DNA of 62,000 bases, taken from NCBI RefSeq assembly GCF_004010195.1, contig NC_057718.1, positions 39,103,143-39,165,142 on the forward strand. Direction: 5' to 3'. The translations under genes were made by a program, and so were the position numbers. A model generated the notes under the pieces. That model saw only the letters and a program-made list of their open reading frames with translations, did no database searches and was not told where the DNA came from. Source of the DNA: Chiloscyllium plagiosum (lineage: Eukaryota). Shown in pieces: positions 12,158-44,324 of this stretch (positions are counted from its first letter, which is position 1; each line of letters opens with the position of its first letter).

Positions 12158-12352
12158 GAGGAGAAAGTGAGGTCTGCAGATGCTGGAGATCAGAGATGGA
12201 AATTCTGTGTCAGAGATTTAATAGCAGTATTGTCTATGGGACTGTATGATTAACTTGCAGTCCTGAAGAAGGGCTAATGCCCGAAACGTCGATTCTCCTG
12301 TTCCCTAGATGCTGCCTGACCTGCTGCGCTTTTCCAGCAACACATTTCCATC
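12158..12352. mobile_element. Split and inverted PLE-derived mini-element with a 15-bp TSD
   Basis: TSD TCTAGTTTTAGACTT at 12143-12157 and 12353-12367. Inverted 3' terminus (12158-12203), ~55-bp filler, then the forward hammerhead-containing part. Confidence 0.85.
12259..12294 (+). ncRNA. Minimal type I hammerhead ribozyme motif, intact core
   Basis: AGTC-CTGAAGA-A-GGGC-TAAT-GCCC-GAAA-C-GTC/GATT. Conserved CUGANGA and GAAA boxes, 4-bp stem II, GUC cleavage triplet, and stem I AGUC/GAUU. Confidence 0.75.
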
Positions 12353-12719
12353 TCTAGTTTTAGACTTCCCTACAATGAGAAAAAGGAGTTGGCTATCTGC
12401 CTTAACTATGCCTCTCAGGCTTTGTTTGTATACTTTTCTTTAGGGGGTGGATATTTTAATATTCAATTACATCTTCAATTGCCTAGTCACCAGGTACAGG
12501 AAGCGAATATGTACTGTTCCATTCCAGCTACTCGTAAACAGTGAAATTACCCCCTTGTTTAGCTCTTCTTTGAACATCTTGTTACCTCCATCTATAGTTT
12601 GATGTAGGCTGCACTTGTCTCATGTTGCACATGATTCCTTCTCAGGGTCAGAGTGCCTAAACAATACAAGTGCCTGGAATTAGTCCTTCACTGGATAATA
12701 GCTTGATGAAAAGATTTTA

Positions 12720-13370
12720 TTCAATAGATGATACGGGGATAGTGGAAAAAGAACAAAAGAGCAGATCTGGGATCGGGCAGAAAATGAGAGACTCTGCATG
12801 ACAAAAGAGGTTTTGGAACAGATAGATAATGAGATAAGCAAAGAAACAAAAGACAGGCTCAGCTGATGTATGAATCGCAGAATATCGAACAGCTGTCAAA
12901 AAGCAAAAAGTAGAGTAAAAGAAATGAACAAAGCATTGACACATGGAAAGTAAAGGAACTAAAATGGGGGAGCAGAGATTGCAGTGTGAAATTATTGAAT
13001 TCACTGTTGAGTCCAGAAGGCTGTAGAGGTACTCCTAATTGAAAGATAAGGTACTCCTCTTCAAGCTTGTTTTGAGCTTCATTGGAACATTGCAATGGAT
13101 CAGAAAGCAGAGACGTCAATGGGAAAGAAAGATGAAGAATTAAAATGACAGGCCACCAGAAGCTTGCCATCATGCATGCAGATACAACAAGACCAATTCC
13201 ACAAAGCAGTCACCCAATCTGCATTTGGTCTCAAATGTGTTGCAAAGACTGTATTGTGAGCAGACAGTACTGTATACTAAAATGTTTCTTTCTGCACAGA
13301 TGCCGGGAATATTCCCAGTATTTTCCATTTTATTTCAAATTTCTAGCATCTGCAATATTTTGCTTTTGAA
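12720..13370 (-). mobile_element. Old Penelope-like remnant (GIY-YIG C-terminus) with an oppositely oriented tail at ~13290-13370
   Basis: Translation LQCSNEAQNKLEEEYLIFQLG..LQPSGLNSEFNNF aligns with LEEERLIFRLGTLQPQGINVDF at 34080-34143. Confidence 0.7.
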
Positions 13371-13663
13371 TGACAACATAATCTTGTTTGTGGGAATGTT
13401 GGTTGAGAGAAAAATAGCGATGAGAACTCTGTTCGATTTCGAATGGTATTTTGGGCTTGTATATAACAATAGAGGCAGATTGGCCCTCAGTTTTCCAATA
13501 AATAGCACCACAGCGACATTGCATTTCTTCAATACCGCATGAATTATCAGCTCACTTTATGTACTCAAAACTATTTTTTTCTGGAAACTACAACCTATGG
13601 CTTAGGTGAGATTTTCTTATAGGTCTATGGTCTCTCTTCCATTTTAGATTGCTTCCTGTATTT

Positions 13664-14210
13664 TGATGTGGAGGGGCAGATGTTGAACTGGGTAGACAAA
13701 GTTAAAAATCACACATAACCAGGTTATAGTCCAACAGGTTTATTTGGGACTACTGGCTTTCAGAGCACTGCTCCTTCATCGGGTAGCTTTGGAGCAGGAT
13801 CATACGACACAGAATTTAAAGCAAAAGATCACAGTGTCATGCAATGGTAATGATATATTGAACAAACCTAGATTGCTGTTAAGTCTTTTATCTTTTAGAA
13901 TGGGTTGCAGGTTTCGGTTCATTAATATGTAAATCCCAGAACTTCTTTCAAGTCACCTTCTTGAGGTAACTTAAGTTATAACTTAAGAAATCTGCAACCC
14001 ATTCTAAAAGATGAAAGATTTAACAGCAATCTAGGTTTGTTCAATGTATCATTTCATTTGCATTACATTGCGATCTTTTGCTATAAATTCTGTGTCTTAT
14101 GATCCTGCTTCATAGCTACCTGATAAAGGAGCAGCACTCTGAAAGCTAGTACTCCCAAATAAACCTGTTGGACAATAACCTAGAGTTGTGTGATATTTTT
14201 AATCTTGTCC
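13664..14210. mobile_element. Fold-back (inverted pLTR) Penelope family-2 insertion
   Basis: 13695-13915 is a near reverse complement of 13987-14210, around a ~70-bp spacer. Each arm holds a degenerate hammerhead (13760-13787 on -, 14117-14151 on +). Confidence 0.85.
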
Positions 14211-14329
14211 TACATTTTGGTAATAGAATTCTAAATTGAGTAGTTTCCTTATTAATAGTTATATATATTCTGCAATTCTAATATATCCTATTTTTTAAAA
14301 GCCCTGATTATTAGCTGTATGCTGTTATC

Positions 14330-15620
14330 ACATCCACCTCAGGCTTTCCCTCTGAGCTTCAGTCCACACCATAAACCTACATTCCCTAGACATTAACTCC
14401 ATCCCACTTCCTAGCCACAGCCTAATGCTGAAACAGAATATCCACAATCTCACAGCCCTATTTGGCCTAAGATAAATCTTCAATCCCATCTCTTTTTCAT
14501 CTATAATACTGCCTAGTTCCACCTCCATAATAACCATTACAGGTGGTTCTGGGATAACATGTTTTGGCAGTGTGATTTGGCTATAACGTTGCTGAAGAAT
14601 TTGGGAGTGGTATTTTTGAGAATACTTAAGATTCCAGCGGGGATTGGTTCACATGTTTTGTTCTGCGCATGCGCCGATATCACCACATGGTTCTGCACAT
14701 GCACCAATGTCCGTGCCATTCTGCCCATTCACAATGTCAGTGCCGGCCTTCTTACTGTTCTGAGCATGTGCCAATGTCAGCTGCCGACAGAGCAGCTTTC
14801 TGTGAGAGGTGCTGTACAGAGAGCAACTTCTTGCCTTTTTTAAATGTACCATGTTAAATTTACTTTTGTGTCGTTAATAAATATGATTTCCACCTTCATT
14901 CCGGTTGTGCTGTACTTTGCATTGGACCTTTGAGCGATTGTGAATGATATTTTTTTACTGGACTTCTCCAATCCTACTTTCCCAGAGGCCCAATTATTTC
15001 TATTAAGCGATTTTCTATTAAGCAAGGTTTCGCTGGAACACAACTCTGGCATTATAGGAGAATTACCTGAATCTACTCCTGCCTCCACCCATTTGCTTTG
15101 CTCACTCAACTTTTAAATAAATTCTGCCTGGACTCCCATCTCTCATCGTTCATAAACTTCAGATTTTCTGAACTTGGGCTATCTTTTCTCACATAAACTC
15201 CTTTTCATCCGTCACCCTTGTAGTTTTTAAACCACATCGGCTCTCAGTCCGCCACCTTGATTTTAAAATACTTATGCTTGCTTTCAAACTCTTTAATGAT
15301 TTAGCTCCATCCTGTCTCTGTAGCCTCCTCAAAATCTTGGTCTACCCATGCTGATATCTGTGCATCAAATTCCATATCTGGCAACTGCACCTTTCAATTG
15401 CCGCAGCTCTAAACTCTAAACTCAATTGCCGCAGCTCTAAACTTCACCCATCTCTCTTTAAGACACTCTTTAAATTTTACCTCTTAAAAAAGCTTTTTGG
15501 TCATTTATCCTAGTACTTTACTGTGCTGCTCAGTGGCAATTTCCTTTCTTATAACCTTCTCTGGTATGCCTTGGGATGTGCTGCTTTTATTAAAGGCTAT
15601 AGACACACAATGTATTGTTT
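14330..15620 (+). mobile_element. Degenerate L2 LINE 3' region, interrupted by a DNA transposon
   Basis: Pyrimidine-rich L2-like text on both sides of 14540-15069, ending GCTTTTTGGTCA...GCCTTGGGATGTG...TTAAAGGCTATA. Confidence 0.6.
14540..15069. mobile_element. Non-autonomous Tc1/mariner (Tigger-like) DNA transposon
   Basis: Starts TA|CAGGTGGTTCTGGGATAAC and ends CATTATAGGAGAATTACCTG (imperfect TIRs). The right TA has decayed to AA. Confidence 0.7.
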
Positions 15621-15913
15621 AAAGAAGAGTCCAGCACACATTTAGGAATTTAATTCCTTTTCTTCAGTTTATTTTCTCTCAGCCTGGAGCACAATGGAGG
15701 ATTATAGTGTTTTATTTATATTGTTATACCTCATATATTATACCTTTCCTACTCCTTTATCTATGTATAGATTCGGTTCCAGGTCCCTCTAACAATTAGG
15801 GAATCTGTAAGTCACACTTTTGATAGCAATTTGTTTTAAACATCATTGATCCCTAATGGGATCATTTTCCAAACTTATGACCTCTATTTTCTAAACTTAT
15901 GACCTCTCTCCAG

Positions 15914-16250
15914 CAGTGGTTCTCAAACATTTTTAGTTGTTTTTCAAAATTGATTAGTAATTACTGACTCCCTAGTTAAATCTAATCTTGATGTGAAAAG
16001 CTGTATGTAATCAGTATATTAGTGAGGTATATGTTCTAATATTTTTCTACAAAAGTATTTACTTACAGATATCAATGATATAAGTGTTCTTGCTTCTCAT
16101 TCACAGAGTCTATGTATCCATGCATACCCCATTTCTAGGTGAACGAACCACCCCAATCTGCATTGCACACATGACAGCTATTGTCATGTTCCGCCTCCCA
16201 GTTCACATTATTCCGTGGTAAAACTGTGAACTCCAGTTTGAAAACTATTG
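15914..16250. mobile_element. Short hAT (Charlie-like) non-autonomous element
   Basis: Imperfect TIRs CAGTGGTTCTCAAAC and GTTTGAAAACTATTG. The 8-bp TSD is not clearly preserved. Confidence 0.5.
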
Positions 16251-17819
16251 CGCTGAGTGTAAAAACCATTCGTTCATCTATTTGTCACACCTAGAAATCT
16301 GTGTGTTTTTGTTCATATGTGTTTTCCTGTATGGAACCAAATCAAAATCCTCATCTGAGTCATCTGTGTCCTCACTGTAGCAAATGAATTATCTTTCCTT
16401 GTGGTGTTGTTGCAGCCCACCTGTATCTGGTGACTCATTGTGCACTGGTCCCACAATGTCAGTTGAACAAATGTCTTTCATTGCTATCAACTGAGGGACC
16501 TTTTTCCTCAGAAAATAATTGATGCTTATTCATTTTATTTGAAGATATATTTGCCAGCTAAATTTTGGATATCTGTAAACAAAAATGTAGAAAGGAAAGT
16601 TGTGATGAAGGAAGAACAGTTGGACTGGAATGCACAAGACACGTGCATTCTGTCATTTCTGAGTGTTTCAGTGCTGCCAGGTGCAATAACCTGAGAAATT
16701 CCCACCCCTGTAATGCAGAACATGTCTCCATTGCATGTACATGACATGCAATGGACACTCAAGCTTTTCATCACCACATATATGTTGCTTTCCTGGGTCA
16801 GTTGAATAACCCCACACAACCTACATAGAAGGGGTGGCTCAGGGGGATGTGCATCATTTCTCCTGAAGGACTGCCATTGATGCAGAAGTCCACACCTAAT
16901 AATCTGTGCCTGTTTGCCTCCTTTAAGCTATAGAAATGTCTTTGACAACAGGGACCTTGAGAAGTCACCAAAGTTCGTGTTAAATTAAGCACTCATCACT
17001 ATTGTTGTGAAACCTGCACCATCTACCAATATCATAACAAAGCCCTATTCCTGGAGAGCCATCTCTCCAATAGATAGGCCATTGGGTCCAGCTGCCCAAA
17101 AACTAATCCTTCAACAGTTTCTTTAACCAATGCCGAAAACGGATATATATGGATATGATGAAGTCACCCTAAAGCATGGAGACATTGACACCACATTGAC
17201 TGAGAGGAGAAAGTTTTTAGCTGCTCAGCACAGCACCTCATAATCCATCAAAGTGCAAGCTATTTCAAGGCTCACTGACTTGGCTGTGAAGAAGAAGGTG
17301 GTGGCAGAAGAAGGAGAAGAAAGACAACCCAGGGCTGTGAATTCCATTTCACTATCTAACAGCATGCCATCATTGTGGATTCCAAGTTGGGCTCCTCAGC
17401 TAGCCTGACAAATGTCATCCTCAATTCCAAGGGACAGCTGATGACATACAGTACATTCACCATAATAAGCAGGCACATTTGCATCCCATATGCCAATGAG
17501 ACCACACACTGGAAAACCGTGCTTTTTCAACACAGGCACACATGCATGTGCGCACACGCACACACATAGACCCCACCATAAGCCATCGTCTGGGATGAAT
17601 GTGTACAACGCAAGTGGGTGGCATGACATATTAGGGCTGGTACATATGGGGGAAAGGTGTTACGGTGTTCCAAGGAAGTAAGGAGATGGTGCACATGGCA
17701 TGAAGGGTAAGTAATGTTGGAAGCTGGGGGGTACTGAGAACAAGTGAGAGAAGGTTTCACTTGCAACAAAAGGTGACAGAACATGAGTTTGGCAATGGCT
17801 TGGTGCAGTGAGTTGGCAG

Positions 17820-17935
17820 AGAGTAGATTATTGTACTGACACTGGTGGAGCAGGGAAGGCCATTCACCTTACTGCACTGCTGCACTTTTCCCCCCTCACC
17901 CTGAAGATGGTGCTGACCAGGGTGGCGATCTCTCA
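17820..17935 (-). mobile_element. PIF/Harbinger Myb/SANT-domain remnant
   Basis: Minus translation EIATLVSTIFRVR...QQCSKVNGLPCSTS resembles the trihelix motif and the copy at 31340-31560. Confidence 0.45.
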
Positions 17936-19472: not shown

Positions 19473-20390
19473 TGTTAAGGATATGTATTTGTATTTATGG
19501 CCTATGTGAAAAATGGAAGATTAGAAACTGTTTTGACACTTTCTGGATTAAAAATTGTTTTTGCCATGTGATCTTTTGGAAAATGAGGGCAGCAGTTTAC
19601 TAAATGCTGTAGCCTACCTGATGTCCGCAGAAAGCCAAATGCCTTTGGAGAAAAAGAGAAATGAAGATTTTTGGAGTTATGAAATCAGGCTTATGGCTCT
19701 TAATTGTTTGAAAAAAAAACAGCTTTAGTAAAGACTCTGGACTATCTGTGATTATAGTTGCGTCGTAACACTTTCTGGATTTGATTTTCTTTTCACAGAC
19801 CAAGTGGTAAATAAGGAAAGAAACCTTATTAGTACAATTCTCTCCCTTTTTCTCTCAGTAAAAGATCTTGGAACTTTGGTCAAGTTTCCAAATATCAGTA
19901 TTTCTGACTATTGTACAAACCTGAAAAGCTAAACTGTGGCCACTTTCTAAAGACTCAGGTCCAGCTTGAGTTCAATCCAGATCTTCCTTCAGTCTATGGC
20001 TGTCAGCAATCTGATTCATTGACAAGAAACCTGGCGACGTAATCATCAAATTCTATCCTGTGTTTTCAGACACTTGGTCAACAGGTCTGTTTGCTTTGCT
20101 TTTAAAAAAAAAGTCTTTGCAGCATCTACTGTCCATTTATATTGTCTAAGTGTGTCTGTGTTTGGGATTAAGAGGATCTACTTCTAATTCTGGATTCTAT
20201 TTTAAGAAGTTTTGTGTTACTTTTTTGAGTTTGTTAAAGAAGTCTGGTAAAAGTTTATTTTATTCTGGGAGTAATACAAAAAGGAATCAATTGACCTTTT
20301 TTGGACATTGAATCAAAACACTTATTCTAATGGTGCAACTGGTGGAATAGTAGGGTTTGATTAACTGTGCATTCTACCCATCACTTGTAA
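19473..20390. repeat. Possible old solo LTR
   Basis: Begins TGTTAAGG and has an overall layout like 37102-37985. Ends and TSD not resolved. Confidence 0.3.
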
Positions 20391-20898
20391 TCTTGAAATT
20401 AGGATCTCTGGAACATTGTGGGTGACTTAGGCATAATTTGGATTCTATCCCAATTCAGCTCAGCTCATGCCCAAATGGAAAATCTCTGCAACTTTCTTCA
20501 CATTTTCTGCAAAGATCAACAGGCAATGTATGAAAAATAAGATTGATAGCACTCTCAGTAGCCCCCTCACAGCTGGAGAAAGCTCTCTTTGATGCATAGA
20601 CTAGATTCATCTTCACATTGTAAACTCATTTCCATGAGTTATGTTCTGTAAACAGTTTGCTGCAGTCAGATTAGCTTAATTGCAGACACCACATGCACAG
20701 GAACTATTAAAGACCATCCTTTGTTTTGCAGTGATTGAAATAAAACTGTCAAACTCCAAAGATAATTGAATTGGGAATTGTACTGTTACAGCTCTGTTTC
20801 TCAGAGTTTAAGCTTGTCTCTAAAAACAGCTGTATGTCATGTTCTTATAGATCTAATTCATTGTAAATATTTCAATAAAGTGTATCTAGAGAGTCATT

Positions 20899-21082
20899 GT
20901 GCTCCGGTTTCCTCCCACAATCTAAAGATGTGCAGGTTAGGTGAATTGGCCATGCTAAATTGCCCATAGTGTTAGGTGAAGGGGTAAATGTAGGGGAATG
21001 GGTGGGTTGCTCTTTGGAGAGTCGGTGTGGATTTGTTGGGCCGAAGGGCCTGTTTCCACACTGTAAGAAATCTAATCTAATC
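20899..21082 (+). mobile_element. HE1-type SINE, 5'-truncated
   Basis: GTGCTCCGGTTTCCTCCCACA...GGGCCTGTTTCCACACTGTAAGAAATCTAATCTAATC. Confidence 0.9.
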
Positions 21083-21636: not shown

Positions 21637-22178
21637 AAAGTTAAAATCACACAACACCAGGTTATATTCCAACAGGTTTAATTGGAAGCTCACTAGCTTT
21701 CGCTCCTTCATCGGGTGCTTGTAGAGGGCACAATTGTCAGACACAGAATTTATAGTAAATGTTTACAGTGTGATGTAACTGAAATTATACATTGAATAAT
21801 ACCTTAATTGTTTGTTGAGGCTTTCATCTGTTAGAATACTATGATCGTTTCACTTCTTTTATGTGTAAATCATAAAACCTTTTTTGTAAAAGTTGCATTC
21901 TCAGGTTAACTGTAACAATTGGTGTTAGCTAGACAATATGTTGAAGGTGTTAGCCCCCTGTGTTCTCTGTCTTTGCCATAATGTTTAGACTGATTGTAAA
22001 CTAAAAAGTGAGATAACAGAGTCTTACATGAATTCAAGCAGTTTTTGAGCAAAGTACAATGTAACTCTGCAAGTACAAATTCACCCCACAAACGTATATG
22101 TATATGTGTGCATGTGGGTCTGTGTGTGTGTGTCTGTCTGTGTTGGGGACAGACACACACACATATATACACACACAT
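21637..22178 (-). mobile_element. Penelope family-2 3' region with a deleted hammerhead and a TG/CA fold-back end
   Basis: Homologous to 13695-13915. Minus strand CACCCGATGAAGGAGCGAAAGCTAGTG. Ends in TGTGTGTGTGTCTGTC...GACAGACACACACACA. Confidence 0.75.
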
Positions 22179-22259: not shown

Positions 22260-22620
22260 TTGCTACTGTCCCTTTTATTCCATGACCTATAATTTTCCTC
22301 AGAAGTCTGTTGTATGGCACTGTATCAAACATGTTGTGGTAGTCCAATACACCACATCAACAGGAGAAAGTGAGGACTGCAGATGCAGGAGATCAGAGTT
22401 AAAAAATGATGAAAGGCTTATGCCCGAAACATTATTTCTCCTGCTCCTCAGATGCTGTCTGACCTGCTGTGCTTTTCCAGCACCACACATTTTGACACCA
22501 ACAGTTTTGTCCTCAACAATCTTCTTTGTAACCTCTTCAAAACAAAATCTCGAGCAAGGTTGATAGGATTTTCCCTTATGAAATCCACACTGAGTTTTTA
22601 GAATCACCCTACACTTTCCA
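22260..22620 (-). mobile_element. Degenerate CR1 RT fragment
   Basis: Translation QCGFHKGKSY...FEEVTKKIVEDK..VDVVY (CR1 RT). Confidence 0.7.
22363..22496. mobile_element. Split and inverted PLE-derived mini-element
   Basis: Inverted terminus GGAGAAAGTGAGGACTGCAGATGC, then forward TGATGAAAGGCTTATGCCCGAAAC...CCAGCACCACAC. CAACAG is repeated at the flanks. Confidence 0.8.
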
Positions 22621-22949: not shown

Positions 22950-24500
22950 GATCCTGATGATCAACAGAGTGTTGAAAGAAGTGGTTGTAAACATTGTGGG
23001 TGCATTGATGGTCATCTTCCAATATTCTATAGAATCTGGAATAGTTCCAATAGATTGAAAGGTAGTAAATATAATCCTACTATTTAAATAGGAAAGAGAG
23101 AAAAAAAACAGGGAAAGTAACCAGTAAAGAAAATACTTGAATATATTACAAATGATGAGAGAACTGAATACTTAACACAGGGATTTATGAAGGAAAAATC
23201 ATGTTTAACCAAATCTGTTAATTTTTTTTGTGGCTGTGACTAGCTGTAAATAAGGGGATATTAATGATGTAGTGTAAATGGATTTTCAGAAGGCTTTCAA
23301 TAAGGTCCCGCACAAGAGACTAATGAACAAAATTAGAACACACCGTATTGGGGTAATATATGACATTGGTTGAGAATTATTTACAAATGAAAGGTTCAGA
23401 TCTGAAATGTGCAAGGACTCCCTTGCACTGATGCTGCTTGACCTGCTGTGCATCTTCCAGCTCCACACTTTATCGATTCTGACTTTCCAATATCTGCAGT
23501 CCTCACTTTCTCCAATTGTGTACAAATAGAAAACCAGAGAGTAGGAGTAAATGGATCATTCCTGGTTGGCTTGACTTGTAGGTTATCACAAGGATCTGGC
23601 TATTCATAATCTCTATTAATGGTTTAAATATGGAAGCCAAATGTTTCTAAGCTTGTTAATGACACAAAATTATGTAAGAATATGAGCTGTGAGGAAGCCT
23701 CAAGGGTGTTTTGATAGGCTAAATTTGCAGGAAAGAACATGACAATTGGAATATAATGTCGAAAAAATAAGTGAAATTATCCATCTTGATTGGAGAAACA
23801 GAAAGAAGAGTTTTTCAGATATAGTGAAAGATGGGGAAATGTTCGTATCCAAAATCACCTGGGTGTCTTTGTTCATGAATCATTGAAAGCAGGTGCAACA
23901 AGCCATTAGGAAGGCAAATCATATGTTGGCCTTTATTGCAAGAGGATTTGAGTACAGGAGCAATTGTTTAGAGCATTGGTGACATCCTACTGACAGTATT
24001 ATGAATACTTGTCTCCTTGCCTAAGGTAGAACATTCTTGCTGTAGAAGAAGTTTACCAAAGCCTCACCAATTGATCACTGGGATGGCAGGAGTGTCTTTT
24101 GAGGAAAGATTGAAGAGACTGGGCATATCTTCTCCAGAAGTTAGAAGATTGAGAGGTATTCACATAGAAACATGCACAATCATTACAGGGTCACTGCTGG
24201 AAAGATATTCTCCGTAGAACAACAATCTCAGAAAAGGGGAGACCATTTTGAACTGAGAGGAGGAGGAATTTCTTCATTCAGGTTGGGGAATGTTGAGAAT
24301 TCTGAATCCCTGAGGGTTATGGCAGCTTTGTCATGAACATACAAAATAACTGATTCATTGGTTTCTAGATATTAAAAACATCAAGGGATAAGGGGATAGT
24401 GTGGGAAAATGATGTGAAAGTAGTAGATCAGTCATGATCAAGTTGAATATCCAAGCAGGCCTGAGAGGCTGAATGGCCTACTCCTACTCCTATTTCCTAT
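22950..24500 (+). mobile_element. Degenerate CR1 LINE (ORF2 RT to 3' tail) with a PLE tail inserted at ~23390-23520
   Basis: GATTTTCAGAAGGCTTTCAATAAGGTCCCGCAC (DFQKAFNKVPH), SFEERLKRLG...RRLRG, and tail GGCTGAATGGCCTACTCCTACTCCTATTTCCTAT. Confidence 0.85.
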
Positions 24501-24658
24501 TAAGCTATAAATTCCATCCCAAATAATTGTTTATAGAAATTTCCCTACCACCAAGTTAACTTGTCCAGTCTGTAATTATTGGGTTGACCTTTACAGGGTT
24601 TTTAAAAGAAAACGGTAATGTTGGCACTTCTCCAATCCTCTAGCATGACTTTGAATCC

Positions 24659-24711
24659 TGTTCCCTGGATGCTGCCTGACCTGCTGCGCTTTTCCAGCAA
24701 CACATTTCCAG
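24659..24711 (+). mobile_element. 53-bp PLE tail micro-insertion with a 10-bp TSD
   Basis: CTTTGAATCC at 24649-24658 and 24712-24721 flanks TGTTCCCTGGATGCTGCCTGACCTGCTGCGCTTTTCCAGCAACAC. Confidence 0.8.
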
Positions 24712-24841
24712 CTTTGAATCCAGGGAAGCTTATTGCTAATGCCTCAGTTTTTACTCTCACTTTCAATATATTTGCATCAGTTGTATCATCCTTTCATCTT
24801 TTACTTATAAGTTTTGTGTCCAATATATCCTCTCTCACTAG

Positions 24842-24965
24842 CACCTGAAGGAGGAGCGAGGTTCCGAAAGCTTGTCTTTTCAAATAAATCTAATGGACTA
24901 TAATCCGGTGTTGTGTGATTTTTGACTTTATCCATCCCAGTTCAACACCAATACCTCCACATCAT
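24842..24965 (+). mobile_element. Penelope family-2 tail starting at a degenerate hammerhead
   Basis: CACCTGAAGGAGGAGCGAGGTTCCGAAAGCTTGTC...GGACTATAATCCGGTGTTGTG...CCTCCACATCA. Confidence 0.75.
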
Positions 24966-32109: not shown

Positions 32110-32295
32110 TCAGTTGAAAAGTGTGGCACTGGAAAAGCACAGCAAGTCAGACAACATCCGAGTAACAGGAGAGTTGATGTTTTGGGCATAAGCACTTCAT
32201 CACGAATGTGGGTGGGGGGGAGCGGGTGGAGTGGGGCAGGCTGAGACATAAATGGGGTTGAGGGGCTAGGGGGAATGTAGCTGGGAAGGAATTTA
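32110..32295 (-). mobile_element. Penelope family-1 tail with a decayed hammerhead
   Basis: Minus strand CATTCGTGATGAAGTGCTTATGCCCAAAACATCAAC...GACTTGCTGTGCTTTTCCAGTGCCACAC. Confidence 0.75.
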
Positions 32296-33684
32296 GTAGA
32301 CAATTGTGGGTCAATATGCACTTCAGTACTAATAAAGCCCACGAAAATTTGGTGTCACGACATTGAACATATAGCCAGAATTGCATCTGAGTTGTGTAGT
32401 TACTATATCATCTCAGGGCACTTTTAATTTTCTAAGGAGCCAACTGTAAATAGGCATTAGACTCTTTAAATATGTAAATATTTCAAAATGAGTAAAATTC
32501 GGAAACTAACTCCACTTATGCCTAGTTTTGCCAGGTATTAAGCAATCTAGCCAGCAATCTTTAAAGACGAAAAAAAGAGTTTCGGCAAATGTTTTAATCT
32601 CTGGGGCAGGAAGAATCAGGAGTAAATACAGATATCCAGAGAGAAAACAATTCTGTTTTTCAGTAAGGTAGGCTTGACAGTTATTTCTATTGTCGCTATT
32701 CTTTTGTCCAAACTGCTGAAGCATTTACTATATCCTTATTTCATTTTGTTAGTTATTTCACCACTAAACCTTTTACTTTCAAGTCAGATTATTGTAATAA
32801 TATTTGGGCAGTAATCAAAGGATAATGGTAGCACTTGGCATTAAAGTTGCATTGCTTTGCCTAAAATAAGTATATTATTAATGCTGGCATTAAATTAAAC
32901 TTGGTGAACAAATGCTGGAATTATACAAACAAATCCATATACAACTGAAAATGACTCATTAAATGTTTGCTAGTGACTCTGGGTCTACTTAGGCTGATAT
33001 AAAATAAGATACAAAATGCCAGCACAGGGAAGCTAGAGCACCAGTTGTGACCAGCCAGATCTGGTGGGATGGGAATAGACTGGCAGCTATCTTGAGCTGA
33101 ATGTTAGGCACAGCCTGGGAAAGAATGTAGTAAGTGAATGATTGTGAACAGGGCCATCAAAAAGCTGGCAGTTCCCAAAGTCATATTGATGAAACTAAGA
33201 GGAACACTCCTTTTCCTTCTCACTTCACCAAAGTGCAATGGTTAGTTCCTGGGTATTGGTGGACAGCAGTTGCACTAATCTCTGTGAAGTGTTTTGCAGT
33301 GGCCTACTGTGAAGCCTTTGCTGTATTCGAGTCACCTTTCTGATATGGAAGAGTAAACTTATGAACAATTACAACAGGGAATTACAAATTTTAACTATTT
33401 GTTAAAGAATTTAATGGCATTCAACAGGTATTACCAATTGTTCAATATCACAAATTGATAACAAATTTGCATTGAGTGGCTTTTGAAGAGCAATAACATG
33501 GTAGTTTTAAAACCAATACCTATACCTGTTTTGCAAAAGGTATAATTCTGTACAGCCTGGTGATCTGTTATTCTTTACTTAAATTATGGGTGTCAGTGAA
33601 GCTTACCATATTCCTCTATTCATTGTTGTGAGATCTTCCATTGTCCGGTAGTTTGTTGTAAACCCTTTTCTACTCGCATTAGAG

Positions 33685-34385
33685 ATCTCCGTGACTACCT
33701 TGTCAGGTCCATGCGCCCCCAACAACCCATCCTCCCGTCCTGGCACCTTCCCCTACCACCACAGGAATTGCAAAACCTGCACCCACACCACCTCCCTCAC
33801 CTCCATTCAAGGCCCCAAAGGAGCCTTCCACATCCATCAAAGTTTTACCTGCACATCCACCAATATCATTTATTGTATCCGTTGCTCCCGATGCGGTCTC
33901 CTCTACATTGGGGAGACTGGACGCCTCCTAGCAGAGCGCTTTAGGGACCATCTCTGGGACACCCGCACCAATCAACCACACCGCCTTGTGGCCCAACATT
34001 TCAACTCCCCCTCCCACTCAGCCAAGGACATGCATGTCCTAGGCCTCTTCCACCGCCGCTCCCTCACCACCCGATGCCTGGAGGAAGAACGCCTCATCTT
34101 CCGCCTCGGAACACTTCAACCCCAGGGCATCAATGTGGACTTCACCAGTTTCCTCATTTCCCCTTCCCCCACCTCACCCCAGTTCCAAACTTCCAGCTCA
34201 GCACTGTTCCCATGACTGTCCTACCTGCCTATCTCCTTTTCCACCTATCCACTCTTTATCTCTCTACCCTTCAGGCACTCTGCCTGTATTCCTGATGAAG
34301 GGCTTTTGCCCAAAACATTGATTTTCCTGCTCCTTGGATGCTGCCTGACCTGCTGTACTTTTCCAGCACCACTCTAACCTAGATT
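33685..34385 (+). mobile_element. 5'-truncated Penelope-like element (Neptune-type): Cys linker, GIY-YIG endonuclease and hammerhead-bearing 3' pLTR
   Basis: Open frame 33691-34215 has CKTC, FTCTSTNIIYCIRCSRCGLLYIGETGR, VAQHFNSPSH and LGTLQPQGIN. Then ATTCCTGATGAAGGGCTTTTGCCCAAAACATTGA (34288-34321) and the shared tail. Confidence 0.92.
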
Positions 34386-34789
34386 GTGAATTTGACTTAG
34401 CTTCATCATGTTAATTATTGGTTCCTTTATTTTCAGCCTGTTTGGTGGACAAATGTCTTTCTAGTTACTGCTACTGATGGTCTTTGTAGGCTGGTTTGAA
34501 AAAGCATTATTCATATGTTTCTAAATTCCCTTGTTACAACAACAGTTTAAATTCTTATAATTCCTTTAATGTAATACAACCTCACAATAGCATTATCAAA
34601 CGAACTACCATATTGAGCCTCCTAAAGAGATATCAGAGCAGACAACTCATAATGTGGTTGAAGATGTAAGTGTTAAGAAGCCTCTTAAAGTTAGATAGTG
34701 GGATATGTCTCTTTACTGCAGCATTCTGCTATGTCTCTCTCCATTTGTGTAGTATACTGCTTACTTTTCCTCCTGCAAAAAAACACAAC

Positions 34790-36060: not shown

Positions 36061-36069
36061 ACAAATTTG

Positions 36070-39000
36070 CCCACATGATCCTGCATCTGGCAATTTTTTC
36101 CCATTCATGTAATCTGTCTGGTGTTTTTCAGACTCTTTGTATCCTCCTCACAGCTTGCACTCTTGCCAATCATTGTATTGATAGAAAATTTGGCTGCAGT
36201 ACTGTCGGTCCTTTCATCTAAATCATTAATATAGATTGTAAACAGTGAGGAACAGCACCAATCTCTATGGCACTCCATTCAATTTGAAAATGATAGATGA
36301 TAGGTTAAGTGACTTAAAATTTCCTGTTTTCTGTCACCATGCTTTCTTGCATAAAGGAGTTGAATCTTGCAATTTTTCAATCAACTATGACATTTCCAGA
36401 ATCTAAGGAATTTTGAAATCTAACATCCAACTAATCCAGTATCTCTACAACTTTTTCTTTCCTGTGTTTGTGATGCAAATAATCAGGTCTTTAGTCTAAT
36501 TTGCTCTATTTTTCTCTAGTGATAGGAATTGTTTTACTTTCCTCTTTCCCTTTTGGTTTTGATTTTCTTCCAATTTTGGAATGTTTCTGGTGTTTTCTCC
36601 TGTGAAGATAGATTCAAAGTCTCTGCTATTTCCTTGCTTCCCATTATTAAATCCACAGTCTCACCCTCCAAAGAACAAGTGCTCATTTTTGTTAGTTGTT
36701 TCCTATTTATGTACTTATAGATGAATTCACTGTTTGTATGTTTCATGATGGATTTCTGTCATCCCATCTAACCTTCTTTTGTCATTCTTTCCTGGCCATC
36801 CATAACTTCCTTAGTTAGCCACAGATGGTGCAATCTCCTTGTAGACTTCTTTCTCAATGAAACATATTGTTGATGACAATTAAGAATTATCTCCTTAACT
36901 GTTTGCCATTCCTTCCCTAACATCTTACTTTGTAACCCATTTTTCCATTCCACTTTAGCCAACTCTGTCTTCTTAACCTTATGTTTGAGACTCTAGTTTC
37001 AAACCCACATTTCTCACCATCAAACTGAAATTCTATCATGTGATCACTTTTGCCAGGTGAATCCTTTACTATGAGGTCATTAATTAAACCTGGCTAATTA
37101 ATGTAAAAGTATGGTATCATTTTATTTTCTGAATTTTAGATTAGGGGTTAATATGGAAAAATGGAAGTTTTAAAATAAAGAAGTTTGTAAGGAATTTCTG
37201 AAATTACTGAAGTTCATTATGTGTGATATTTACATTGCTGCTTTGTTTAAGCAATGTGAGACTTGGCTGGTAACATGTAGTTTATTGGTTTGTGCAATTT
37301 TGACCAGACATAAATACAAAGGTCATCAGCCTGCTGACAATTCTCTGATTGGTTCCTGGGCAGATGAACAGTTTTTTAGGTATGAGCAATTCAGTGAGAA
37401 GCCCTTGAACTGTTGGAAGGGCAGGTGATTTAACTGTTTCTCTCTCTGTAGTGTAATACCTGAAGCCTGAAAAAAGCCAGATTTTCTCCCACCAGTTGCT
37501 GTAAGCTGTTGGTTTAGTCAGAAACAATCACCCAGTGCCTCCTGCGAAAAAGTGAAAGAAGCCAGCAAAAGGAGATTGAAGATAAGAAAGTCTTGGCAAC
37601 CAAAATTATTGTCCCAATGAATTCTGTGGACTGGTGCTATTGAATTCTGCTTTCCAATTTTTTTCTCTCCACCCATAAATACTACTTTAATTGTTTGTGT
37701 TTTTATTTTTGGGATTTTGTTTTAAAAGAGACTGAGATTTGTTTAACAAGTAGAGCCGTACATTGATCATTCATAGCTGTTTATTTATGATTAGAATTTA
37801 CTTAATAATAATTTCTGTTTGTTACAAATAAATACAGGAACCAGATCAATGTTTTCTGTGAACTCGATTCAAGCGAACAGGTAAACTAGGGACTTCGCAT
37901 ACTTTGATTAAATCCTTAATTTTTTTAGCAACCCAGGAGTAGCAGGACTTGAGAATTAGTGCACTTTGCTGAGCAGATCTTAACATTCTTTATTCTAGTC
38001 AAAAATATCTTGTTGCTTGGTATATTGTTCTCAGAAGTTGTTCCAAATATAATTTATGATTTCATCCTCTGATCTGTGTTTTCCAATTTGATTCATCCAA
38101 TTTATTTCAGATTAAAATTCCTCATAATTATTTCAATTCCTTTTTTACAAGCCCACGTTATTACTTTGTTTACACTCTATCCTGCAATATCGTTATTACA
38201 CTGAGGACCTATAATGTACCCAGACAAGTGCTTTAATTCCTTTTCTTATCATTCATTTTTATTTCTTATCTAAGCTGATTCTATATCTTGATCCTCTGAA
38301 TGAAGATCATTTCTCATTGCTCTACTGAATATCCTTTATTAACTGAGCTTTCCCTCCCTTTTTCCCAGACATTTCAAAATGCCCAATACTGTTAAGGATT
38401 TAGGTCTCAACCATGGTCATTTGCAGTCATGTCTCTGTGATGGCTATCATAATCATCATCATTTACTTCTATTTGTGCAATCAACGTTTCCAAATTGTAA
38501 CAATGACCATGTGCTTACAGATACAGAGCCTTAATTCTGTCTTCTTACAATATTTCCCTATCCAGACCTCATTTTCTGAGGCATTGTTATGTTCGAATAC
38601 TCTGTTCCTTCTTCTACCCTGCACTATTGTCTTGTCCTTTAACTTTCCAAATGTTCCCTTGTCTTAATTTTTCCCCTTCCCCTCTCCACACAAAAAAAGG
38701 GTTGCTTTAAAAAACAGTTCACTAGGACACTGATCTCAGCATGGTTCAACTGCAGACAACCCCTATAGTATTGGTCCCTCTTTCTCAATACTCATGTCAG
38801 TTCCCCATGAATCAGACCTATTTCTCCCATACCAATGTTTTAAGACACTCATTCAACTTTCTGATATTGTCTACCCTATACCAGTTTGACTCAGGTAGTA
38901 ATTCAAATATCATTACCTCTGTGGTTCTGATTTTATTTAAATTTAGCCCATAGTTGCTGATACTCCCTTAGTAGATCCTCTTTTTAGTCTTACCTGTGTC

Positions 39001-39500
39001 ATTGGTACCCACATGGCCTTAACAACTGGATATTTTGCCTCTCACTTCCACGTTCTCTCCAGCTCTGAGGTGATCTTTTACCTGGCAGCAGGCAGGCAAC
39101 ATAGCCTTTCACACTCAGCTCATGTTGCAGAGAACTGTATATGTTTCCCAACCATGCTGTCCCCTATTATAACTATATACCTACCACTTGACTCCACTGT
39201 GGTGTGTGGACAATTTACTCATCTTCTTTGCAATCCCTGCTGTCATCCAAACAAGCTAAAATATCATCAAAGGTGTTGGACCATTGCAAGGGCTGACACT
39301 CCTTCATTGTGACATTCTGGATCCCCATAACTGCCTCTCTTACAGTTTCACCCATGTCCCTGAACACAAACCAAATCTGAAGAGCTAGCCAAAGGGGTAT
39401 GATTATCTTCTGAAACAAGTTGCCCAGATAAGTTTACAATTATAGATTGGACTCCAGCTCATCAACTCTAGCCACAGGTTCCTGAAGCTGCAGACCCTGA
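36070..39500 (-). mobile_element. Highly degenerate CR1 (ORF2 N-terminal half and upstream region), interrupted at 37102-37985
   Basis: Translations LEGETVDLIMGSKEIAETLN and LAKVEWKNGL...EWQTVKE...LWLTKEV. The upstream boundary is approximate. Confidence 0.55.
37102..37985. repeat. Possible solo LTR inserted in CR1
   Basis: TGT...ACA ends (TGTAAAAG...GATCTTAACA) interrupt CR1-like sequence. TSD not evident. Confidence 0.4.
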
Positions 39501-40505
39501 GTTGTAAATGATTCAGTTCTGGAGTCTATTCACAAACTGAGTTGCAGCCAAGTCAGAATTCAATGCACGACAATGTAAAGCAACTGTTTGTAAGTACAGG
39601 AAATTTTCGTACATCGAGTCTTTAAAATTACACCCTTATATGAGATTGCATTTGTAAGCATGAATGTTCATAAGTGGTAAATGAGGGGCCCCCTTTACTA
39701 AGATATGGTTGCCATGGATCACAAATTTCCACCAGTATCTGTATGCTGCAGCTGCACCACAATATCTGACCTACTCTTAGTTTGTTTTATTCAACTAGCT
39801 AGATCTCATATTTACAAATATTACTCAACTGATATCCAAAATTATGTGTTTAGCTAGTTTCATTATAAATCTAGTAGTGCTAAAGGGAATCAAAGCCATA
39901 ATGCCCTTCAGCCAGTGAACTCTGAGCCTGCCTGTGGTGTGACAGTTTGGTTTCCTTCTCTTTTTTTCAAACACTAGCACACCCAGTTTGCTTCTGCTTT
40001 CTATGAAATCGTCATTTATTCCCCAACTGTTTCTCTCTTTTATCTTCACTACTGCTGCAAGTCCTTACCCTTCACTGTGCTCGCTCGCTCTCTCTACCCT
40101 CCTCCCCCCGCCGCACCCCGCCCCCCCAAAAAAAACCCTCCAATCCCACCCCCTTAATTCTCCACTGCTGCTGTTGTCTCCAATCAAGTCCTTATTTTTT
40201 CTTCTCTGGTCTAGGTGCAGTTCCAACAGTGGCCAACACTCCTGATGGTGCTGCTTGGATTAAGGAATTACAAGCAAACTGATTGCACAGTAGCTCCTAG
40301 AAATTGGATATTTCCTTTATAAGGGAAGATGATCTGACTGCAGCTCACCAGCGACTTAATTGCCACATCTGGTCAGGGCTTGTGGAAGTGGCCACAGCAT
40401 TATTGTCCCAAAGTTTTCTGACTTGTTCAGGGCCTCCATGACCTCAATTGAATTTGGTTCTCTTATCACTGTGAAGGCAACAATATGCAAATGTCGTGTT
40501 CGTGT

Positions 40506-41294
40506 CACAGAGTCATAGAGATGTACAGCGTGAAACAGACCCTTTGGTCCAACCCAACGATGCCAACTGGATATCCCAACCCAATCTAGTCTCACCTGCC
40601 AGCACCTGGCCCATATCCCTCCAAACCCTTCCTACATATACCCATCCAAATGCCTTTTAAATGTTGCAATTGTATCAGCCTCCACCACTTCCTCTGGCGC
40701 CCATTCTATACACGCACCACCCTCTGTGTGAAAAAGTTGCCCCTTAGATATCTTTTATATCTTTCCCCTCTCACCCTAAACCTCTGCCATCTAGTTCTGG
40801 ACTCCCCAACTCCAGGGAAAAGACCTTGTCTATTTATTCTATCCATGCACATCATGATTTTATAAACCTCTATAAGGTCACCTCTCAGCCTCCAACGCTC
40901 CAGGGAAAACAGCCCTAGCCAATTCAACCTCTCTGTATCTTCCAACCCTGGCAACATACTTGTAAATCTTTTCTTAACCATTTCAAGTTTCACAACATCC
41001 TTCCAATAGGAAAGAGATCAGAATTTCACGCAATATTCCAAAAGTGGCCTAACCAATGTCCTGTACAGCCGCAACATGACCTCCCAACTCCTGTACTCAA
41101 TACTCTGACCAATAAATAAAAGCGTACCAAACGCCTTCCTCACTGTCCTATCTACCTGCGACTCCACTTTCAAGGAGGAATGAACCTGCACTCCAAGATC
41201 TCTTGGTACAGCAACACTCCCTAGGACCTTACCATGAAGTGTAAAAGTCCTGCTAAGATTTGCTTTCCCAAAATGCAACACCTCACATTTACCT
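40506..41294 (-). mobile_element. CR1 (HER1-like) LINE 3' ~0.8 kb
   Basis: LHFGKAN...RDLGVQVHSSLKV...RTLVRPLLEYC and RLRGDLIEVYKIM. Tail CTCTATGACTCT. Confidence 0.92.
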
Positions 41295-41354
41295 AGGGCT
41301 TAGCTCTTCAAAATAAAAACAGCTTCCCTAATGTTTCTCTGCTTTTGTTCAAGA

Positions 41355-41510
41355 CAATGCCATGGCATCCTTTACATCTAGTTAAGTGCAGGATTATCTC
41401 ATCTGAAATTCAGCACATCTGACAATGTAGCACTCCATTAACATTATACTTTGCGCTTATAGAATGGATCTTGGAGCCAAGACCTGCTGACTCAGAAGCA
41501 AAAGTGATTT
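41355..41510 (-). mobile_element. Old Deu-domain-like SINE remnant
   Basis: GCCATGGCATCCTTTAC...CTCATCTGAAATTCAGCACATCTGACAATGTAGCACTCC...CTGACTCAGAAGC. A similar remnant lies at ~13430-13610. Confidence 0.45.
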
Positions 41511-41664
41511 TAGAGGCACAATGCAATTGGTGACTGAATTCAATATAAAATCTAATTAAGCATGCCAAATAAAATTTATATTACCACAACTGTGAACAGT
41601 ATCTAAGGATAGGAGATCCATGTATTCCTTGTAATCAGCACTGCTTATTATTTTTGTTTTGCAG

Positions 41665-41750
41665 GTTGGCCATGGATACCTGTAACAGTCCTGGCATATT
41701 TCTACTGCTATGCCCAAGTGGGAATTGAATATGACCGAGTCAAAAATTAA
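41665..41750 (+). CDS. HHAT: Last coding exon of hedgehog acyltransferase (MBOAT family)
   Basis: Acceptor TTTTTGTTTTGCAG (AG at 41663-41664), phase 1. Encodes (G)WPWIPVTVLAYFYCYAQVGIEYDRVKN*, matching the recalled human HHAT end [23 protein letters not shown]. Convergent with KCNH1, as in human. Confidence 0.9.
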
Positions 41751-42304
41751 ATCTTCTGTTAACCGAGCTATACTTTACTAGTATAAATATTGATCGTGTT
41801 TTAAAAAGAGACATGCTGTCAAAGCTTTTCATCAACACTCAAGACAAAATCACAAGAATAACACCTCTCAAAGGCAACAGTTTATTACCTCAATCAATCA
41901 ATCCACTTGCCAGCAATTCTGCATCGCATGAGATATAAATTGTTGATCCATTTCATGGCATTAATCAAGTTCTGTACTGTCAAGCAACTAATAATACTAA
42001 ACTTGAAAAAAATCTCATTACTGTTTTATATTTAAAATGCAAAACTTAATTTGGATACCTTTTGGCTGCATTTTCATCTTCAAATTTGCTATTTGGGTAA
42101 ACTTAACATGTGCCTCTGCTATGCATAGTGTTTGGGGAGAGAACTGCACCAGAAGTGGAGCTGCATCGATTTCCTTGGGGGAAGGAGAGTTTGCAGTGCA
42201 TACCATCCGTGACATTCTTTCATGATAATAAAGGAGAATGCTGTCAAGTTTGTGGCACTGCTTGCTTCCAGACAATCAGGTAATCTGTGCAGCACTTTTG
42301 TGCA

Positions 42305-42310
42305 AATAAA
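42305..42310 (+). terminator. Candidate HHAT polyadenylation signal
   Basis: AATAAA ~555 nt after the stop, followed by a GT-rich tract (TTGGTGTGTGTAAGTTATGTT). Another AATAAA is at 42227-42232. Confidence 0.4.
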
Positions 42311-42348
42311 TGATTCCTTGGTGTGTGTAAGTTATGTTAATATAAATA

Positions 42349-43245
42349 CAGAGGAACCTCGATTATCTGAATATCGGATTGTCCAAAGATCTCTATGTCC
42401 CGATAAAAACATTACATCAAAGAGGTGTTACCAACACTGATCGCGACTTTTGTTTACAATGATTAAAAGTGAATTTGGCTTACAAATAACAGACGCCAAG
42501 AACAGTCCTGGACATTGATGGGAGCCCAGGTACCGTCACCAGATGACTGACCTCCTGTCCCCCTCTCTCTCCCCATAATTTCCCTGGAGTTCTACAGGGG
42601 GGTGTATCCTATACACACTTTCGCCAGATAATCTCTCCAACATTGTCTTGTACAGGGCAGAGTGTGAACTTGTCAAAAAGTTGTGTGTGTGGCTGTGTGC
42701 ATGTGTGTGCGGCTGTGTGCATGTGTGTGCTATTTTGAGACTCACGCACCCCCCCCCCCCCCAAAGGCAGCAGCAGTCTTGCTGTTGTTGTCCAATCCGG
42801 CTGCTGTCTCTACTCCGTTACTTCATTTTGTTCTGGAGTCCCATTTGGGGAGAAGATATAAGAGGCATCTGACTGCTTCATCCGCTGACTGGAACCGTGG
42901 AAAGTTGAAAACATGCAGCGGGGTGGGGGTTTGCGCTGTGTGCTGCTGCCTAGTCTCCTGAACGGGGAGCAGACTCAGCAAGCGCTCAGTCTGGCAATCC
43001 CATTGAAGTGAAGCAGCGGCAGGGAGAGGCTTCAGCAATGCTGCTGGTCCCTTACACACAAGTGTATCTGCTCAGAAACAAACCCTGAGACAGAGAGAGG
43101 GAGCAAGGCAGGAACAGCAAGGAAAAAGGAAACTTAAGAAAACTCCGAGTCCCAGAGGAGAAACATTGAATCGGTTTTCCGAATAATCAATCATCCAAAC
43201 GAAATACTGCCTGCCAATCTCGTTTGGATAATCGAGATTCTTCTG
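42349..43245. mobile_element. Non-autonomous Tigger/pogo-like DNA transposon (897 bp)
   Basis: TA|CAGAGGAACCTCGATTATC...GATAATCGAGATTCTTCTG|TA, giving TIRs and a TA duplication (42347-42348, 43246-43247). No transposase ORF. Confidence 0.88.
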
Positions 43246-43249
43246 TAGT

Positions 43250-43467
43250 GGGTTCGATTAGCTCTGTTGGCTGGATGGTTGATTTGCAAGGCAGAGTAAC
43301 ACCAACAGTGTGGGTTCAATTGCCACGGCATCTGAGGTTACTATGAGGTCATCTTTCTCAGCCTCTCCCTTGCCTGTGGTGTGGTGACCCTCAGATTAAA
43401 CCACTACCAGTTGTCTCTCTGTAGTAAAGCAGCCCTGTGATCCAGTAGGAGTATGGTGACTTTATTA
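43250..43467 (+). mobile_element. Short tRNA-derived SINE
   Basis: TAGCTCTGTTGG (A box), GGGTTCAATTGCC (B box), and tail GTATGGTGACTTTATT. Confidence 0.65.
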
Positions 43468-44181
43468 GCACTTATTGACATAACTATTTTTCAAAAACAC
43501 ATTAAATTACCTGGTATTTAAATTCTTATTTTGGTGTCAATTAGTGAAATTAATGCAAATATATGAAATTCCCCTACCTAATATTTTAGTGAAATCTTGT
43601 AACCCTATTAAATTAGTGAACAAAAGGAAGGCAGAATTACACATATATAGTCAAGTGTGATTCTAAACAAGCAAATTGTTGTATTTGCTACATGCCACAG
43701 GCTAATTTACAGAATTCAGTTAGGATTCCGAACCTGTTTTATTAAATGAGATTAATCCAGAATAGCTGATAAATTAAATCTGGTTACCTAATCCCAAAGA
43801 AGATTTAAGGGGTCATATTCAATAAAAAAAACTTTATCTGTAGGAATTAACCTGAACTAGATTGTGATGCAAAGCTTAAACATTGCATTATCAGTGATAG
43901 CAGGTCAAAGAGTGCATTGGCTAGACATTCACCAGTAGTTTATCTTCTTCCATTTCGGTGCTTACATTCGAGTGCTTATATTGAGTGCTTATGGGGTGGC
44001 ACGATGGCTCAGTGCTTAGCACTGCTGCCTCACAGTGCCAGGGACCCAGGTTCAAATCTGGCGACTGTCTGTGTGGAGTTTGCGTATTCTCCTAGGTCTG
44101 CGTGAGTTTCCTCCGGGTGCTCCGGCTTCCTCCCACAATCAAATGATGTATAGGTCACGTGAATTGGTCAAGCTAAATTGC

Positions 44182-44324
44182 TTGACCAATTCTTCATTCC
44201 TGAAGAAGGGCCTGTGCCCGAAACGTCGAATCTCCTGTTCCCTGGATGCTGCCTGACCTGCTGTGCTGTTCCAGCAATAAAGTTTCAACTTTGATCTCCA
44301 GCATCTGCAGACCTCACTTTCTCC
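44182..44324 (+). mobile_element. PLE-derived mini-element (hammerhead to 3' end) with a 14-bp TSD
   Basis: TCAAGCTAAATTGC at 44168-44181 and 44325-44338. Ends CCAGCATCTGCAGACCTCACTTTCTCC. Confidence 0.9.
44196..44231 (+). ncRNA. Minimal type I hammerhead ribozyme motif, intact core
   Basis: ATTC-CTGAAGA-A-GGGC-CTGT-GCCC-GAAA-C-GTC/GAAT. Perfect 4-bp stem I (AUUC/GAAU) and stem II. Predicted cleavage after 44227. Confidence 0.8.

Follow-up and report, generated by a model that had tools for sequence, protein, structure and literature searches.

Short repeats carrying hammerhead ribozyme motifs are scattered through a 62,000-nucleotide stretch of the Chiloscyllium plagiosum genome (RefSeq assembly GCF_004010195.1, contig NC_057718.1, forward-strand positions 39,103,143 to 39,165,142; hereafter the window), and some of them begin almost exactly at the ribozyme. 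What sets this 5′ boundary? A preliminary description of the window had proposed a non-autonomous, retrozyme-like unit whose limits are dictated by the ribozyme region. On sequence evidence, we identify the repeats as pseudo-long-terminal-repeat (pLTR) stubs of several GIY-YIG-encoding families of Penelope-like elements (PLEs). They probably start before the hammerhead because reverse transcription begins within an RNA that has not been cut and continues until it passes the capped 5′ end.

Position of the 5′ boundary

Positions are numbered from C3, the first base of CUGANGA, which is taken as 0; the predicted cut then falls between +27 and +28. In order to avoid bias, the copies used for counting young 5′ ends were picked by way of an anchor behind the cut site. 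Loci selected on their 5′ part were excluded from the pooled set, and the results of an initial similarity search, which favoured whole-stub matches, were kept out of the end counts. Among the 145 young arms pooled from subfamilies 1A and 1B, 81 start at −8 to +3 and 14 near the predicted cut (+28), and the rate of 5′-end loss is 11% per base at −8 to +3 vs 0.3–1.2% elsewhere. On one contig, where the first 100 anchor matches merged into 99 arms, 56 start at −8 to +3; of the remainder, 18 begin upstream of this interval and 25 downstream of it, including 8 at +24 to +32. An age-mixed sample of family 1 gave 57 of 120 arms at −8 to +3 and 6 of 120 at +24 to +32, and in family 3 nearly all core-bearing copies (27/30) start at −6 to 0, one apparently short copy having been reclassed as long by eye.

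Exact matches across the genome show the same step: a 38-mer behind the cut occurs 21,012 times and a 38-mer upstream of the core 5,040 times, and 1,781 copies begin at A(−4) vs 44 at a control A(−15). An identical upstream junction at −15 recurs on many contigs (14 of the 44 A(−15) matches) and could represent a small chimeric subfamily or a stub within another repeat.

Plotted against the cut site, the 5′ ends are clustered and not randomly scattered, with no clear peak at the cut site. The earlier idea that the ribozyme region sets the boundary holds to that extent; the boundary itself follows an initiator-like CA about 30 nt upstream of the cut. Because of this distance, cleavage cannot have made the boundary, as judged from the copies themselves, and unit ends set by the cleavage site are at odds with ends at −8 to +3 and few at +24 to +32. 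A cut template would start copies at +28; such starts amount to at most a few percent, so that the template RNA appears to have been uncut. Nor is the boundary a fixed unit length, because arms extending into the coding start, which began elsewhere, stop there too (among 27 such arms without N flanks, 9 of the 15 that reach the boundary).

The window gives a mixed picture of the claim that copies begin at the ribozyme. It stands for the copies starting at 44194 (−6/−5) and 54842 (−4), fails for the one at 24842, which begins about 80 nt upstream of its core (24762), and is ambiguous for that at 7793 (−3 or −23). What had been taken for a short copy at 34288 terminates a longer one that includes a GIY-YIG frame (33652–34215), and the copies near 13760, 14117, 21690 and 32170 extend 60 to more than 130 nt upstream.

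An initiator-like CA and an extra G

The upstream edge of the 5′ cluster is a CA in three families, at −4 in families 1 and 3 and at −8 in family 2 (edge sequences CUCAUU in family 1, UCCACA in family 2 and AUCAGU in family 3). Families 1 and 2 fully fit the human initiator consensus BBCA+1BW (PMC5287114), a fit with a chance of 1.6% per position, and family 3 fits it partly, with an A at the first B position (it reads TCAGTT across the start). The boundary seems to follow an initiator-like CA rather than a fixed position in the ribozyme.

In full-length L1 inserts made from capped RNA, the 5′ junction carries an additional G (PMC11702581), and a G likewise precedes the putative first transcribed base here. 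Counts of this G were made on copies that start at the edge A without a template C preceding it. In family 2, the G was present in 73 of 100 copies (hand count) vs a 28% background, and in about 35 of 54 after removal of element-derived and long-copy contexts. Family 1 gave 35 of 66 by hand count, once 34 partner-derived junctions had been dropped; with clean flanks the ratio was 12/20 vs 7/40 at other start points (P=0.0013), and comparison of the 35/66 with 12/44 at the A(−15) control gave P=0.006. Among 23 solo inserts with a traceable duplication, 13 have the G: once as a single extra base, eight times at the end of longer filler and four times inside or abutting the duplication. The G excess is strong in family 2, moderate in family 1 and weak in family 3, and as a cap signature we regard it as suggestive overall.

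The repeats as stubs of Penelope-like elements

Upstream of the part represented by the stubs, longer relatives carry a pyrimidine-rich untranslated stretch and, before it, a GIY-YIG frame (33652–34215 in the window, and loci of families 1, 2 and 3). The stubs align collinearly with the coding element's 3′ end and share both of its 3′ termini, which lie about 36 nt apart: among 244 arms, 88 end at +88 to +92 and 111 at +125 to +127. Target duplications measure 14 or 15 bp in 96 of 161 cases, and head-to-head pairs consist of one long-ended and one short-ended arm. A 30–40-bp tail, an inverted truncated partner, partial tandems and a target duplication have been described as features of endonuclease-bearing (EN+) PLEs (10.1101/2021.04.23.441226), and we found all four here, the inverted partner being 5′-truncated.

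Overlapping natural fragments gave the domain order reverse transcriptase (RT), CX4CxxC linker, GIY-YIG. The GIY-YIG domain was also found in sampled locus L172, and RT motifs in sampled locus L179 scored below the cut-off (RVT_1, E 0.012). The linker, CNRRRCNTC, precedes GIY-YIG and has the CX2-5CxxC form of the Neptune clade, which is common to Neptune and Nematis (10.1101/2021.04.23.441226); we classify the elements, by their sequence, as EN+ PLEs with a Neptune/Nematis-type linker pattern. In three sampled loci (L163, L172, L180), the coding start contains a long low-complexity stretch, rich in Ala, Thr and Pro and with tandem repeats, that precedes the RT; a short upstream frame from about +46 lies ahead of the main ATG. 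The motif, the element class, solo copies and inverted pairs have all been described in the literature already. The stubs themselves are likely dead on arrival, since a sequence that the anole enzyme requires, situated behind the tail, is missing from them.

This structure bears on the retrozyme-like unit, in which hammerhead self-cleavage would make the RNA ends and the unit would spread as small linear or circular RNA. Retrozymes do derive from pLTRs (bioRxiv 10.64898/2026.07.22.740005), intact cores exist and their stems covary between families. The loss rate is also slightly raised at +24 to +32 (14 of 137 at risk; 1.2% per base vs 0.7% and 0.3% on either side), and one window arm (61807) starts at +28. 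Against this, the units span the cut site instead of ending there, with the few starts at +24 to +32 counted above, and helix III, being loopless, cannot form within a lone copy; in families 1B and 1C, moreover, stem I has a U-U mismatch. Among 142 intact cores, 94 are single, 36 have an opposite-strand partner only and 12 have a same-strand partner within 1 kb (130 have none), several of the latter only 36–66 nt apart and none in the window. Because they are mostly single or opposite-strand, the stubs fail the definition of a retrozyme. The model is contradicted for the bulk of the copies, and we consider it very improbable as an account of the family. The sole retrozyme-like candidates are tandems whose units measure about 320 and 224 nt and contain two hammerheads apiece (L121–L132, L135, L155, L156, L159, L112). 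They may be assembly artefacts: their junctions slide on one diagonal at constant length and many of the loci adjoin N runs.

Hammerhead cores and their abundance

Cores were searched with a minimal-hammerhead descriptor that requires pairing of helix 15.2–16.2 and leaves stem I unconstrained. As first described, the window holds exactly two intact cores, with C3 at 12263(+) and 44200(+); 30 shuffles gave none. Both read CUGAAGA-A-GGGC/GCCC-GAAA-CG-UC with no loop on helix III, and can be assigned to the minimal type I hammerheads of Penelope type. The assignment had already been made on first reading, and the descriptor and the GIY-YIG-coding relatives agree with it.

In 307 descriptor matches, the 15.2–16.2 pair demanded by the descriptor is CG (262), GC (43) or UA (2), and every match has an extra base between positions 9 and 10.1. 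In stem I of family 1, C-G occurs in 228 and U-A in 224 of 243 copies, and the third pair is U-U in 61 (families 1B and 1C); in family 2 (n=38) the three pairs are C-G (29), A-U (29) and C-G (25). The covariation of stem I between families, proposed earlier as a check, is thus present in a stem whose pairing the descriptor does not impose. Folding of the 42-nt monomer gave stems I and II only (−7.7 kcal/mol). An Rfam covariance-model scan of the window returned 9 matches at E≤5, with no hammerhead family among them.

Extended to the genome, the search confirmed the suspicion of a very abundant family. A strict family-1 core pattern has 35,028 + 34,981 = 70,009 exact matches in 3.56 Gb (control 0), or about 20 per Mb. 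The looser descriptor found 32 cores in 603,626 sampled bases. Because the strict pattern is about two times denser in this sample than across the genome, the count was scaled by ratio only; we estimate roughly 100,000 intact cores genome-wide. With decayed copies included, 120 family-1 and 34 family-2 arms were counted in 665,626 bases (window included, loci not selected by their 5′ ends), about one per 4.3 kb and close to the one per 5 kb first noted. Subfamily 1A, the youngest, appears recent because 51 of 72 sampled arms are identical to the 44200 copy across 45 nt. Another hammerhead family, in which the additional base following A9 is a U and stem II has 6–7 bp, occurs in sampled loci L079, L133, L138, L261 and L263 and has no intact copy in the window.

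A proposed origin of the stubs

In the mechanism that we favour as the probable one, transcription would start at the edge A and yield a capped RNA in which the hammerhead is the first structure to fold. The enzyme would prime at nicked target DNA, start on this RNA at +90 or +126 and run off the cap, leaving a stub of 95–130 bp with the reverse-transcribed cap as the extra G. Two enzymes may prime at two nicks, the cDNAs being joined head-to-head or to target DNA via microhomology. Perfect head-to-head joins at −4 make up 25 of 100 A(−4) matches, and many of these represent two arms of one insert. A number of ends continue into coding-start sequence, with 7 of 24 distinct junctions falling in the peak, and would be template jumps. 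By cutting, the hammerhead would detach some 32 nt of leader together with the cap, and the inserted copies would have come from RNA still uncut.

Several observations weigh against this mechanism. The ends spread over about 12 nt, reaching −6/−7, beyond the proposed start, and family 2 is broader, with 11 of 34 arms at −15 to +3 and 10 of 34 beyond −100. Between 16 and 24% of arms extend past the boundary; these may stem from read-through RNA or from a jump to the transcript's 3′ end, reaching the 3′ untranslated region (UTR) and the coding frame. The G excess of family 1 is no longer significant if the recurrent junction of the A(−15) control enters the comparison a single time (12/31, P=0.14), G stands at 27 of 65 other start points when element-derived flanks are kept, and the hand counts are low in family 3 (about 4/9) and subfamily 1C (2/7). 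Many junction G's can also be explained by microhomology with the partner arm. In a single-cell poly(A) run, 735 reads matched the element, in both orientations; a fraction of 0.9 of them continue into flanks, and their depth tracks the genomic copy profile. These reads show no start or end peak, in a library of passive read-through that is unsuited to starts or cleavage; a second raw-read run of the same sample had no reads on the element. Among 20 examined regions no intact full-length element was found, just fragments, deletions and N runs. Finally, the internal start is taken over from an element of the Poseidon clade.

The boundary could be made differently, if the template extends upstream and, just past the hammerhead, the enzyme is stalled or falls off or the cDNA is cut back (for example by a protein clamp, a double hammerhead formed by two template RNAs or the element's own endonuclease at ATT). 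We consider this unlikely. The boundary adjoins stem I in families 1 and 3, whereas the edge of family 2 lies 5 nt beyond its stem I. A block also predicts that arms begun further downstream stop at the same place, and it suits ends spread over some 12 nt; however, a fold should halt the enzyme on its 3′ side (+20 to +32), where few ends lie, and a block leaves the G excess unexplained. As to trimming, ATT is the preferred site of the anole endonuclease within that element's terminal repeat (PMC11167929) and family 1 starts with ATTCC, yet families 2 and 3 have no ATT at the edge. Trimming at ATT is not supported: ATT or AAT lies near just 22 of the 161 borders of duplications, and partner arms account for some of these. 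A splice-acceptor origin was rejected, the flanks having no shared upstream exon.

It is more doubtful still that most stubs came from short non-autonomous masters, deletion derivatives keeping the ribozyme, the tail and the coding start, instead of from full-length transcripts. The tandems of about 320 and 224 nt, which link the coding start to the 3′ UTR, recur at several loci, and the single upstream junction at −15 would suit such a source. However, the coding-start marker has just 385 exact genome matches, the 320-nt junction occurs in 4 of the first 30 loci with that marker, and the sliding junctions and N runs at tandem loci suggest assembly error. Short masters are in any case compatible with a start-site origin, as stubs of either source would look alike.

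Copies in the window

The decayed copies noted earlier are real. Their cores lie at 22407(+), 32204(−), 34292(+), 54838(−) and 61808(−) in family 1, at 14120(+), 13781(−), 21716(−) and 24845(+) in family 2 and at 7793(−) in family 3, with a variant pair near 11740/11780. Four arms absent from the earlier list, at 8405, 23418, 24656 and 61807, start inside or behind the core. The copies are as follows.

44194..44329 (+), young family-1A stub, start −6/−5; intact core 44200–44227, predicted cut 44227/44228, long 3′ end at about +126
44168..44181 (+), 14-bp target-site duplication of the 44194 stub, second copy at 44325–44338
12261..12355 (+), family-1B stub; intact core 12263–12290, short 3′ end at about +90
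12155..12204 (−), inverted long-end fragment of the same insertion as the 12261 stub; 15-bp duplication 12143–12157 / 12353–12367
33652..34215 (+), GIY-YIG endonuclease frame with CxxC linker, predicted 3′ end of a 5′-truncated coding Penelope-like copy (PF01541, E 1.1e-4)
34216..34386 (+), family-1C 3′ untranslated stretch contiguous with the GIY-YIG frame; decayed core 34292, short 3′ end
54746..54842 (−), family-1 stub with decayed core (54838), start −4
61681..61870 (both), head-to-head pair; minus arm 61808–61681 (start −2, long end), plus arm 61807–61870 (start about +28, short end)
22362..22492 (both), inverted long-end fragment 22362–22405 and decayed family-1 stub 22407–22492
32112..32274 (−), old family-1 arm, core 32204, reaching about 60 nt upstream of the core
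24656..24723 (+), family-1 arm without core, start about +33; 10-bp duplication
23418..23513 (+), family-1 arm without core
13704..14204 (13915–13704 minus, 13986–14204 plus), family-2 head-to-head pair with decayed cores 13781(−) and 14120(+), both arms reaching more than 130 nt upstream of the core
21643..21837 (−), family-2 arm, core 21716, stem II partly deleted
24762..24923 (+), family-2 arm, core 24845, start about 80 nt upstream of the core
8405..8484 (+), family-2 arm, start inside stem II
7673..7796 (−), decayed family-3 stub, core 7793, stem II of GGGU/ACCC type; 5′ boundary −3, or −23 by loose alignment
11701..11844 (both), inverted pair of another variant, decayed, the arms meeting within the core

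The 61681..61870 pair is bordered by a 17-bp duplication (at 61667 and 61870). The 44194 stub lies within a short interspersed nuclear element (SINE)-like repeat (43994–44488), of a class that we take to be tRNA-type and that has further copies at 6334–6648, 8644–8802 and 20878–21076. At its 5′ junction (44168–44193), a 13-bp inverted target copy reaching about 44193 forms a small hairpin in the flank. The window also contains a broken, near-complete long interspersed nuclear element at 1114–5867 (+), with ORF1-like, AP endonuclease and RT frames, and, at 49952–50797 (−), the final coding exon of a gene for a potassium channel of EAG type, whose best match is KCNH5 (PDB 7yid, E 1.6e-63). The stubs 54746 and 61681 lie upstream of this exon on the gene's strand and are likely intronic.

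Comparison with known systems and implications

Minimal hammerhead ribozymes in the pLTRs of metazoan PLEs were described by Cervera and De la Peña (2014, PMC4209133), including a loopless helix III form able to fold as a dimer only. The motifs described here share with them the type I core, the extra base between 9 and 10.1, G10.1-C11.1, the palindromic loopless 15.2–16.2 helix and the short stem I, as well as the prevalence of lone motifs from truncated elements along with close opposite-strand pairs. They are set apart by a stem II of 4–5 bp and by their number, at least 70,009 exact cores vs about 4,000 in coelacanth and 9,000 in Xenopus, and the parts of that study compared report no 5′-end pile-up or start-site signature.

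Internal initiation of reverse transcription is known from the Anolis Poseidon element PAc (Frangieh et al. 2024, PMC11167929). In PAc, two fixed start sites yield the 30–40-bp tail and both strands are primed, as would be the case here. Unprocessed RNA is the dominant template of PAc in vitro, as we propose here, and RNA reads ending at the cut site are absent there; none are listed here either, in the unsuited poly(A) library. In contrast to PAc, the elements here have a CX4CxxC linker of Neptune/Nematis type, and the PAc study, in the parts compared, addresses the 3′ ends of inserts and not the 5′ boundary or the transcript start.

Animal non-LTR retrozymes (PMC7229834; bioRxiv 10.64898/2026.07.22.740005) likewise have a type I hammerhead, a pLTR origin, dispersed monomers and very high numbers, with 126,247 hammerhead motifs in axolotl. 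They form tandem units of 150–450 nt with mostly canonical motifs and circular RNAs, whereas here tandems are rare and units straddle the cut. Judged against the published counts compared, the C. plagiosum genome is among the densest hammerhead collections.

The Drosophila virilis Penelope promoter (Schostak et al. 2008, PMC2377424) also has an initiator-type start in the pLTR upstream of the hammerhead, and partial tandems. There, 46 nt and a 75-nt intron separate the start from helix I downstream, whereas the start proposed here adjoins the motif; no obvious mechanism for pLTR regeneration was seen in that work. No report of a 5′ pile-up or a cap G at Penelope hammerheads, or of a cartilaginous-fish count, was found among titles and abstract openings; supplements may bear on this.

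Retroviral minus-strand strong-stop DNA is a short cDNA made from a site near the 5′ end of the RNA. A wider reading, which we put forward tentatively and hold to be possible but less probable than the run-off itself, is that PLEs make a comparable strong-stop cDNA: priming would take place some 100 nt from the cap, the enzyme would run off, and a template jump would be needed to rebuild the terminal repeat, and failed jumps would have left hundreds of thousands of cap-marked stubs recording the transcription start. The hammerhead, lying in the first 32 bases, would then be a self-decapping switch and not the maker of template ends. Unlike in retroviruses, priming here would occur at target DNA and the short product itself would be inserted.

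If the proposed origin is true, the stubs record the transcription start of the element at base resolution, and tens of thousands of young, datable junctions offer a direct handle on pLTR rebuilding and on the role of the hammerhead. The junctions argue for uncut, likely capped RNA as the template and name a candidate start base.

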